Source: Escherichia coli
GTDB taxonomy: Bacteria > Pseudomonadota > Gammaproteobacteria > Enterobacterales > Enterobacteriaceae
Direction: 5' to 3' (one strand)
Assembly: GCF_002854065.1 (NCBI RefSeq)
Contig: NZ_CP024147.1
DNA length: 64,000 bases
Part shown: positions 29,903-32,635 of the stretch, piece by piece
How positions within the stretch are numbered: the stretch's first letter is position 1
Layout of the letters: each line of letters opens with the position of its first letter
Notes under the pieces: model-generated
Databases searched by the model: none
Seen by the model: only the letters and a program-made list of their open reading frames with translations
What the model was told of the DNA's origin: nothing
Program-made: the position numbers and the translations under genes

Positions 29903-30301
29903 TTATTCGTCTGAATCTAAAACATACTTTGTGAAGTATTCCTTTAACTGGGTTTCAGGAAGAGTGATTAGTGTCTCGACGATATCGGGCTGTTGTAACT
30001 TGCCAAATAAACAGCGTAAAAGTTTCAATTGCTGCTGCGGATTTTCCACAATCAACGCAATAACCAACGATACCTCCACGTCGTTATCATCATCCGCTTG
30101 CTGAAAATGAACTTTATTTGTTGGCCTTAACAGATAAATGGCTGACGACTTAGCATGAATCGCCTCACAATGCGGTATTGCAATGGCGTGCTGCTCAAGC
30201 ATTATCCCGGTAGGGAATTCTGCTTCTCTGGCAATTAATGCCTGTGGCCAGGTATCATGAACCACACCTTTGGCGAGCATCTCATTACCGATATGGGTTA
30301 A
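29903..30301 (-). pseudogene. gatA: PTS galactitol EIIA gatA, 5'-truncated at the IS5 junction
   Basis: The gatA reading frame continues upstream of the internal Met at 30280 to position 30301 (…LTHIGNEMLAKGVVHD…), where the IS5 terminal repeat begins; about the first 18 codons plus promoter/RBS are missing. Confidence 0.8.
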
Positions 30302-31496
30302 GGAAGGTGCGAATAAGCGGGGAAATTCTTCTCGGCTGACTCAGTCATTTCATTTCTTCATGTTTGAGCCGATTTTTTCTCCCGTAAATGCCTTGAATCA
30401 GCCTATTTAGACCGTTTCTTCGCCATTTAAGGCGTTATCCCCAGTTTTTAGTGAGATCTCTCCCACTGACGTATCATTTGGTCCGCCCGAAACAGGTTGG
30501 CCAGCGTGAATAACATCGCCAGTTGGTTATCGTTTTTCAGCAACCCCTTGTATCTGGCTTTCACGAAGCCGAACTGTCGCTTGATGATGCGAAATGGGTG
30601 CTCCACCTTGGCCCGGATGCTGGCTTTCATGTATTCGATGTTGATGGCCGTTTTGTTCTTGCGTGGATGCTGTTTCAAGGTTCTTACCTTGCCGGGGCGC
30701 TCGGCGATCAGCCAGTCCACATCCACCTCGGCCAGCTCCTCGCGCTGTGGCGCCCCTTGGTAGCCGGCATCGGCTGAGACAAATTGCTCCTCTCCATGCA
30801 GCAGATTACCCAGCTGATTGAGGTCATGCTCGTTGGCCGCGGTGGTGACTAGGCTGTGGGTCAGGCCACTCTTGGCATCGACACCAATGTGGGCCTTCAT
30901 GCCAAAGTGCCACTGATTGCCTTTCTTGGTCTGATGCATCTCCGGATCGCGTTGCTGCTCTTTGTTCTTGGTCGAGCTGGGTGCCTCAATGATGGTGGCA
31001 TCAACCAAGGTGCCTTGAGTCATCATGACGCCTGCTTCGGCCAGCCAGCGATTGATGGTCTTGAACAATTGGCGGGCCAGTTGATGCTGCTCCAGCAGGT
31101 GGCGGAAATTCATGATGGTGGTGCGGTCCGGCAAGGCGCTATCCAGGGATAATCGGGCAAACAGGCGCATGGAGGCGATTTCGTACAGGGCATCTTCCAT
31201 GGCACCGTCGCTCAGGTTGTACCAATGCTGCATGCAGTGAATACGCAGCATGGTCTCCAGCGGATAGGGCCGTCGGCCATTGCCCGCCTTGGGATAAAAC
31301 GGCTTGATGACAGCGGTCATATTCTGCCATGGCAGAATCTGCTCCATGCGGGAGAGGAAAATCTCTTTTCGGGTCTGACGGCGCTTAGTGCTGAATTCAC
31401 TATCGGCGAAGGTGAGTTGATGGCTCATGATGTCCCTCTGGGATGCGCTCCGGATGAATATGATGATCTCATATCAGGAACTTGTTCGCACCTTCC
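30302..31496 (-). mobile_element. IS5 insertion sequence (1195 bp)
   Basis: Terminal inverted repeats ggaaggtgcgaataag (30302..) and cttgttcgcaccttcc (..31496); encodes a 326-aa IS5/DDE transposase; the 4 bp outside each end differ (TTAA vs CTAA). Confidence 0.9.
30448..31428 (-). CDS. insH: IS5 transposase (InsH-like, DDE)
   Basis: 326-aa ORF ([35 protein letters not shown]...) matching IS5 transposase. Confidence 0.9.
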
Positions 31497-32635
31497 CTAA
31501 TCATGCCCAGTGGGATGTCCACGCCTTCAAGATTCACCATCATCGTTTCGACGCTATTTTTAATCCGACTATGCGGCCAGTAATAACGAATACGATCCGA
31601 CAGGCTGTAACGAATATCCAGTAATGAATCGTTAAAACCCGTACGATAATATTTTTTCCAGTATTGCGGTTCGTCGAGCATCACTTCTTCAATTACCGCC
31701 AGGCAACCGCTGCGATTTTCAGGGGCGATAAGTTCCTGCTCAATTTGTGCCAGTGCAAATATCGCCTCGCGTAAAGCAAAGGTTAATGCGGGACCGACTT
31801 TCAATATTGCAAAGTGATCGCGGACTAATTCCCAATAAGCCGTCCGGGTCTGGTAATCGGTAGAATGTGCTTCATAAACCATTCGGGTGTTTTCTATCCA
31901 TTGCGCCAGCGGCTGCGCTTCCTGCGACTGATAATGGATAATATTGCTGTGATCAAATTCCACGCCCGGCTGCACCACGATGGCAATCACGCGTGTTAAC
32001 GCCTCTGTCAGCCCACGGGCAATAAAGGCCTTTTGATGCGTACGTAAAGTATTGGCGGCATCTTCAACATGGGTGATGTGTACTGACTGAATGGCGCTGG
32101 CCTCACCGCCCGGAACCGGAACTTCGGTGCCAATGACATAGCTCAGTTGCTCACGCTGGCAATCTGTCGCCACACTTTCCGCAGCAAAGCAAAGCACAGC
32201 AGCTCGTTCCGCAACTGTTTCTGGTGCTAACGGTATGGGATCCCCCGCGCAGGACATTGACGCATCAAGATGAATTTTACTGAAGCCGGCACGAACATAT
32301 TCCTTTACCAGCTCGACGGATTTTTCCATCGCCGCATCCGCATTTTCTTGCTGCCAGCAGTTTGGCCCCAGATGATCGCCGCCGAGAATAATGCGTTCGC
32401 GTGCAAACCCAACTTTATCGGCAATCGTAAAAACAAATTCGCGAAAGTCTGCCGGTGTCATTCCGGTATAACCGCCAAATTGATTGACCTGGTTTGACGT
32501 TGCTTCAATCAGCACTTTGCGCGTGCTGTTGCGATCAAATGCCAGCGCCGCTTCGATAACCAACGGATGGGCAGAACAGACTGAACATATGCCGATATGT
32601 TCACCAGCTTTATGCCGGGCAATTAACGTTTTCAT
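31469..32635 (-). pseudogene. gatZ: Tagatose-bisphosphate aldolase subunit gatZ, 3'-truncated by IS5
   Basis: 388-aa ORF is GatZ-like for ~380 aa, then reads into the IS5 end for 9 codons (…[16 protein letters not shown]); about 40 C-terminal residues are missing relative to the ~420-aa GatZ I recall. Confidence 0.8.

Follow-up and report, generated by a model that had tools for sequence, protein, structure and literature searches.

The window analysed here (the whole 64,000-nucleotide stretch of Escherichia coli DNA) carries the gat operon on its minus strand, and the features of the locus follow one another on the plus strand as gatR, gatD, gatC, gatB, a gatA remnant, an IS5 element, a gatZ remnant and gatY (Table 1). 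The gene order, gatY-gatZ-gatA-gatB-gatC-gatD-gatR, is that of a gat operon, and the locus aligns collinearly with those annotated in ECONIH5 (an intact-operon strain) and K-12. The profile search gave scores above the cutoffs for the models of GatZ (NF011626), GatA (NF007236) and the GatY tagatose-bisphosphate aldolase.

Table 1. Features of the gat locus and its IS5 element (positions in the window)
Feature	Position	Strand	Remarks
gatR	26262..27041	-	DeoR-family repressor, intact; ORF and DeoR-family profile matches
gatD	27141..28181	-	galactitol-1-phosphate 5-dehydrogenase, intact; 346 aa, 2 substitutions vs ECONIH5, 0 internal stops
gatC	28229..29584	-	PTS IIC component, intact; 451 aa, 3 substitutions vs ECONIH5, 0 internal stops
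gatB	29588..29872	-	PTS IIB component, intact; 94 aa, identical to ECONIH5
gatA remnant	29903..30301	-	codons 19-150 and stop; start codon, RBS and codons 1-18 absent
TTAA	30298..30301		original IS5 target in gatA, retained copy of the target-site duplication
IS5 isoform	30302..31496	-	complete, 1195 bp; transposase gene oriented like the gat operon
IS5 transposase-distal inverted repeat	30302-30317		
Transposase ORF	30448-31428	-	326 aa; lone long ORF in IS5
IS5 transposase-proximal inverted repeat	31481-31496		
Chimeric gatZ' ORF	31469..32635	-	388 aa; 379 native codons, 9 IS5-end codons and stop
CTAA	31497..31500		deletion endpoint; native gatZ YTAR tetranucleotide now abutting the transposase-proximal IS end
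gatZ remnant, native part	31497-32635	-	
gatY	32664..33524	-	tagatose-bisphosphate aldolase catalytic subunit, intact; identical to ECONIH5

The repressor gene and the genes for the dehydrogenase, the IIC and IIB components and the aldolase are thus all intact and free of internal stops. The GatR protein (257 aa when the RefSeq-style start at 27035 is used) has no internal stops and is identical to its ECONIH5 counterpart. A preliminary description of this stretch, made from the letters alone, had set an uninterrupted gatR against the IS-disrupted gatR of K-12, and both halves of that statement hold: the gene is full length here, and the annotation of K-12 MG1655 shows gatR split by IS3E (as well as gatC as a pseudogene with a frameshift). 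The region upstream of gatY is likewise collinear with K-12 (the alignment reaches 33703), and a consensus scan placed a promoter-like site near gatY at 33583-33554 on the minus strand.

The element lying between the two remnants is bounded by the terminal inverted repeats GGAAGGTGCGAATAAG and GGAAGGTGCGAACAAG (the far end reads as the reverse complement of GGAAGGTGCGAACAAG), which agree at 15 of 16 positions and have the form of the 16-bp imperfect repeat GGAAGGTGCGAAYAAG. Its DDE transposase ORF (InsH/Ins5A) is intact and scores 365.5 bits with the NCBIfam model NF033581 for IS5 family transposases, whose cutoff is 140; 321 of the 326 residues are identical to InsH1 of K-12 and 5 differ. Over its whole length the DNA is 95.7% identical to IS5A of K-12 (1144/1195, with 51 substitutions and no indels). 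ISfinder practice counts as isoforms those elements whose nucleotide identity to the reference IS5 is about 95% or higher. As the observed value is borderline against this threshold, the element is best named an IS5 isoform.

Both genes flanking the element are truncated. On the one side, gatZ' keeps 379 native codons plus 2 nt before it runs into the IS, from which the tail REGANKFLI and the stop derive (the first tail codon being a hybrid). The native GatZ is a 420-aa protein corresponding to PDB 2fiq (a full-length structure); the remnant covers positions 1-380 of 421 in the GatZ profile, and the C-terminal 41 native residues are gone. On the other side, the gatA remnant is 100% identical at the DNA level to intact gatA over 399 nt and covers positions 19-150 of 150 in the GatA profile. 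From the in-frame stop inside IS5 onwards, the gatA frame holds no ATG, GTG or TTG until the internal Met26 ATG at 30280, which leaves an ORF of 125 aa. Neither a 420-aa GatZ nor a 150-aa GatA is encoded in the window, and a search of the rest of the window found no second copy of gatZ or gatA and no copy of the native sequence missing between them.

The size of this missing sequence follows from alignment to intact operons, a comparison that the preliminary description had called for. Relative to ECONIH5 the native operon lacks exactly 187 bp (positions 4400-4586 of the ECONIH5 locus), and the comparison with K-12 gives the same size. The lost interval comprises gatA codons 1-18 with the RBS, the 9 bp that separate gatZ from gatA, and gatZ codons 380-420 together with base three of the codon at which gatZ is cut. 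In intact operons, the deletion endpoint reads GATACTGA running directly into CTAATCATG. The tetranucleotides abutting the two IS ends differ, TTAA on the gatA side and CTAA on the gatZ side, so that the 4-bp duplication at a YTAR site (the tetranucleotide type that IS5 targets) is not seen in the window. The structural outline offered in the preliminary description, i.e. a complete IS5, a gatZ reading into it for 9 codons, a gatA starting at about codon 19 with no RBS of its own, and unequal 4-bp flanks, is borne out at every one of these points, the gatA RBS lying inside the missing 187 bp.

We compared this structure with 5,426 complete E. coli genomes, in which the junctions were probed with 100-bp sequences. 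An IS5-like element was found in this part of the operon in ten of them. (The matches listed for the IS5 family all have the orientation of the query, which reflects a search bias, the pieces having been joined on one strand, and is not a biological signal.) Two of these genomes, CUWW06 (wastewater, Thailand) and SY3626 (chicken meat, China), have the same IS5 at the same position of gatA, and share the GGGTTAA-IS5 junction on the gatA side with the window. Both also have TTAA beyond the other IS end, i.e. a target duplication, and both retain a full-length gatZ (1263 nt, 420 aa). The window and CUWW06 are collinear over 64 kb and 99.97% identical; they differ by 16 scattered SNPs and, in structure, at a single place. 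This structural difference consists of 191 bp (a second TTAA plus the 187 bp), which in CUWW06 separate the transposase-proximal IS end from the CTAA of gatZ and which the window lacks; it begins at the first base past that IS end, while IS5 itself and the gatA-side junction are unchanged.

A further member of this group, 100416 (human stool, Gambia), keeps the simple-insertion junction IS5-TTAAAACTTCGC on the gatZ side and has lost 793 bp on the opposite side (what was left of gatA, gatB and the first part of gatC), with the endpoint at TTAG. This deletion and that of the window flank one IS5 copy on opposite sides, so that this copy has yielded no fewer than two independent deletions, which run in opposite directions. 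At the gat locus the element is 100% identical in the window, CUWW06, SY3626 and 100416. Among the 5,426 genomes probed, the ancestral junction on the gatA side is contiguous in 2 and the other ancestral junction in 3, and no contiguous match to the junction of IS5 with CTAA-gatZ was found with the 100-bp probes.

This junction does recur in other assemblies. The exact 388-aa GatZ' that spans it is encoded in the NCBI assembly GCA_035821435.1 and in the Logan assemblies of ERR10376543 and of one further sample. In GCA_035821435.1 it lies on a 97.6-kb contig with the order gatY, gatZ', transposase, a 125-aa gatA', gatB and gatC, while the contigs of the two Logan samples end inside the IS. The loci fetched differ from the window by 2 substitutions (GCA_035821435.1) and 1 substitution (ERR10376543), and these differences of 1-2 SNPs indicate independent data sets of the same clone.

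Overall, these comparisons make it very probable that the locus arose by a two-step, IS5-mediated decay of the gatYZABCD operon. In the first step, as the comparison with the sister genomes shows, a copy of the IS5 isoform entered gatA at TTAA in an ancestor of the lineage, between codons 18 and 19, duplicating this tetranucleotide and cutting gatA off from its own start codon and RBS. In the second step, likewise shown by comparison, the transposase-proximal IS5 end was joined, in the sampled sub-lineage, to the CTAA of gatZ 187 bp away, with loss of one TTAA copy and the 187 bp (191 bp in all) by a mechanism that we infer. Thus gatA was knocked out first, by the insertion, and gatZ was clipped later, and the missing target duplication in the window is secondary. 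The preliminary description had proposed an insertion with an adjacent deletion; sister genomes with the simple insertion (TTAA on both sides, intact gatZ) directly support this proposal and refine it into two separate events.

As for the second step, the favoured route is an IS5 adjacent deletion through intramolecular (replicative, cointegrate-type) transposition into a nearby target, and by analogy with other elements this is the most likely one. The observable features are those of an adjacent deletion: the precursor is extant in CUWW06 and SY3626, the deletion starts at the IS terminus, and it ends at a tetranucleotide of the target type. In fact, both deletion endpoints, CTAA in the window and TTAG in 100416, are native YTAR sites, although YTAR occupies only 34 of 3700 positions (0.92%) in the sampled gatC-gatY stretch. 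The chance of random breaks falling on YTAR twice is about 1e-4, and the exact coincidence of both endpoints with such rare sites points to IS-mediated events. To our knowledge, the transposition chemistry of IS5 has received less attention than that of IS903, and we know of no biochemical dissection of the deletion mechanism of IS5 proper. In IS903, an element of the IS5 family, adjacent deletion has been tied to the replicative pathway (PMC11708052).

The same sequence product would result from recombination between two IS5 copies, i.e. from a second IS5 inserted in the same orientation at the gatZ CTAA, followed by RecA-dependent loss of one IS5 together with the 187 bp. This route would leave TTAA-IS5-CTAA exactly as observed, where the flanks do not match but each is a valid YTAR site, and recombination between IS copies is listed as a frequent cause of absent target duplications (PMC11708052). 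On the other hand, it requires an extra insertion only 187 bp from the existing copy, and the deletion in 100416 would demand the same coincidence again. None of the 5,426 genomes has a contiguous IS5-CTAA-gatZ junction together with the retained interval, and none of them presents itself as a two-copy IS5 intermediate. We therefore regard this route as unlikely, albeit still deserving some weight; it is in any case a variant of the second step and still involves the IS.

A single event, in which IS5 entered a double-strand break or arrived together with a spontaneous 187-bp deletion with no prior simple insertion, would account for a window lacking a target duplication, and one-step acquisition of an IS with a deletion has been proposed for E. 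coli C (PMC11708052). However, near-identical genomes that have the TTAA duplication and the 187 bp share both the IS sequence and the gatA-side junction with the window. For an independent event to give this result, an identical IS5 isoform would have had to land on that very base and face the same way, which makes such an origin highly improbable. An assembly artefact, with reads mis-joined at a repeated IS5 so that the true genome would read IS5-TTAA-AACTTCGC with the 187 bp and not IS5-CTAATCATG, was an objection raised in the preliminary description, and although assembly errors classically arise at IS copies and the new junction occurs in no complete RefSeq genome, the recurrence of the junction-spanning GatZ' in the independent assemblies described above answers it and renders this explanation very unlikely, the least credible of all.

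With a two-step decay as the preferred origin, the consequences for function can be considered. The first 18 residues of EIIA(Gat) are gone, and so are the signals for its translation. GatZ, which partners the GatY aldolase without being catalytic itself, is truncated at its C-terminus. Lack of EIIA(Gat) combined with a truncated GatZ leads us to predict an inability to take up, phosphorylate and grow on galactitol; this galactitol-negative phenotype is a prediction from the truncated gene products. The predicted null might in principle be softened if a different EIIA of the PTS, or a fragment initiated at Met26, took over part of the EIIA function.

Judged from the layout of the operon, expression of gatBCD would depend on read-through across the 1.2 kb of IS5, and the polar effect on these genes that the preliminary description predicted, barring an outward promoter in IS5, may occur. 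A consensus scan of 29800-33800 found no sigma-70-like site inside IS5 directed towards gatA and no terminator-like hairpin on the minus strand of the element; the counts of the scan did not rise above those expected from shuffled sequence, which makes it a poor guide to read-out transcription. As the precursor with the simple insertion was already without gatA, the clipping of gatZ probably took place in an operon that was already inactive, and it may represent neutral erosion. For annotation purposes, gatZ and gatA should count as pseudogenes and the strain as predicted galactitol (dulcitol) negative.

Damage to the gat operon by insertion sequences has several precedents. The same operon is also damaged by an IS and a frameshift in K-12 MG1655; there, however, it is the repressor that was struck, resulting in constitutive expression, whereas the window has an undamaged repressor and lesions in two structural genes, gatA and gatZ. 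In K-12 colonizing the mouse gut, mutations in gatA, gatC, gatZ and the gatY regulatory region give a strongly selected gat-negative phenotype, and 79% of them are IS insertions (PMC3945185). These alleles (Barroso-Batista et al. 2014, PMC3945185) resemble the one described here in having an IS in gat coding genes, including gatA and gatZ. They differ in that they are fresh simple insertions in a K-12 background with a constitutive operon, whereas the window holds an allele of a natural lineage with a secondary deletion and an intact gatR. Since the operon of K-12 is constitutive owing to the IS3E in gatR, and since gatR is intact in the window, the selective argument made for K-12 does not transfer automatically.

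With the adjacent deletions described for IS150 in the LTEE and for IS903 (PMC11708052 and references therein), the locus shares the unchanged state of one junction, the displacement of the other and the loss of the target duplication, as well as an observable precursor carrying only the IS and recurrence at the same IS copy. It departs from them in the element, which is IS5 proper, and in the endpoints of the window and 100416, both of which can be read as YTAR targets. In addition, the 187-bp deletion is very small compared with the kilobases lost in most reports of adjacent deletion.

Other field isolates have independent IS insertions in the same 3 kb, at positions, with elements and in lineages different from those of the window. 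ISKpn26 occurs in gatA at two positions (in BL12, GS04, BHD6, GF43 and FJ_Ec_21) and in gatB of CUPS04, there together with ISVsa5, while PEC41 has IS5 in gatC and IS1 at the 3' end of gatZ, adjoining gatA. We considered whether the ISKpn26 insertions mark a same-site hotspot and rejected this notion in view of their different positions in gatA and gatB. Among the genomes examined, none of these isolates has the adjacent deletion seen in the window. The independent insertions in field isolates identify the gat operon as a recurrent IS target in nature, and thus add field evidence for this beyond laboratory K-12.

The allele in the window is new; on the other hand, IS-mediated loss of gat is already well documented, and the present case neither opens a new mechanism nor settles an outstanding question. 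Its merit is that of a clean natural example, in which the precursor and two independent adjacent deletions, on either side of the same IS5, are all represented in public genomes. The members of the gatA::IS5 lineage (CUWW06, SY3626, 100416 and the window clone) may trace, over time, the erosion of an operon by an IS. Positive selection may also have favoured the loss of galactitol use in wild gut- or animal-associated E. coli with an intact gatR, paralleling the gat-negative sweeps seen in experiments with K-12. A broader reading, in which the lineage is a natural erosion series with repeated short, target-directed deletions in both directions, galactitol loss is selected and read-through from IS5 sustains gatBCD expression for some residual function, is speculative and, taken as a whole, rather doubtful.

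Elsewhere in the window, two copies of IS1, both lacking target duplications, replace 5.4 kb (yehA-yehE) and 14.2 kb (yehF-yehQ) relative to K-12. Taken together with the IS5 deletion, these IS1-associated replacements show that IS-associated deletions are general in the lineage to which the window belongs.

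The IS5 in the gat (galactitol) operon of strain 100416, the same copy as that of the window, still has the ancestral junction on its gatZ side; on the side opposite gatZ, 793 bp are gone, a deletion that takes out what remained of gatA along with gatB and the start of gatC. The deletion ends at TTAG, an instance of the IS5 target-type tetranucleotide YTAR. This 793-bp deletion is independent of the one in the window. Further gat-operon positions carry IS insertions, each independent, in strains PEC41, CUPS04, BL12, GF43 and FJ_Ec_21. The loci of these five strains include ISKpn26 copies near the 3' end of gatA, in mid-gatA and (in CUPS04) in gatB with ISVsa5 close by; PEC41 combines IS1 at the gatZ 3' end adjoining gatA, IS5 in gatC and a gatD frameshift. 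The gat operon is thus a repeated target of IS elements in field isolates.

The window IS5 (30302-31496) differs from IS5A of the comparison strain K-12 at 51 positions. Since 17 of the first 20 differences listed fall at element positions 852-1011 (plus-strand numbering), the comparison suggests that the isoform is mosaic or recombinant, not evenly diverged.

The window also holds two IS1 copies, flanking apbC(mrp)-metG on both sides, with no 9-bp target duplication at either copy. The first stands in place of 5,388 bp of K-12, a fimbrial operon from yehA (the bulk of it) to yehE; the other copy stands in place of 14,201 bp, from yehF to yehQ (again the bulk of it). Judged against K-12, both sites are IS-associated deletions, additional to that in gat. 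The IS1-apbC-metG-IS1 order that the deletions left resembles a composite transposon; this layout is shared by the window and its near-identical relative CUWW06.

Coordinates of insertion sequences, RNA elements, hairpin and putative pseudogenes
Feature	Sequence	Position	Remarks
IS5	strain 100416 (L004)	4005-5199	
IS1 copy 1	window	43764-44531	768 bp; same orientation as copy 2
IS1 copy 2	window	48020-48787	768 bp; same orientation as copy 1
Sib RNA	window	10066-10212	Rfam; adjoins Ibs toxin gene (CUWW06 annotation)
CyaR	window	24311-24396	Rfam
TPP riboswitch	window	41571-41667	Rfam; upstream of thiM
Peptidase-S11 leader	window	63100-63180	Rfam; upstream of pbpG
Strong terminator-like hairpin	window	33663-33640	minus strand; gatY-fbaB region
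yegE/dgcE	window	about 5600-7750	MASE1/PAS diguanylate-cyclase gene; split, internal stop
mdtD	window	about 17900-19320	internal stop
mdtQ	window	about 62200-63650	frameshifted

The gatY-fbaB intergenic region (window site 33685-33703) differs in length among strains, being about 59 bp longer in K-12 than in the window and 90 bp longer in the relative SY3626 than in CUWW06; it is probably a variable spacer of the REP/BIME type.

The cryptic prophage PR-X remnant (ogrK, yegZ), which adjoins cyaR in K-12, is missing from the window at 24199-24407 by comparison with that strain. The Rfam search of the window gave four matches exceeding the gathering thresholds, all as expected for E. coli. The three tabulated pseudogenes, with their lesions, are those of the CUWW06 annotation; they are presumed in the window, and placed there, by collinearity. 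The same annotation has a ParD/ParE toxin-antitoxin pair in the yegP-yegQ interval (window about 22170-22770).
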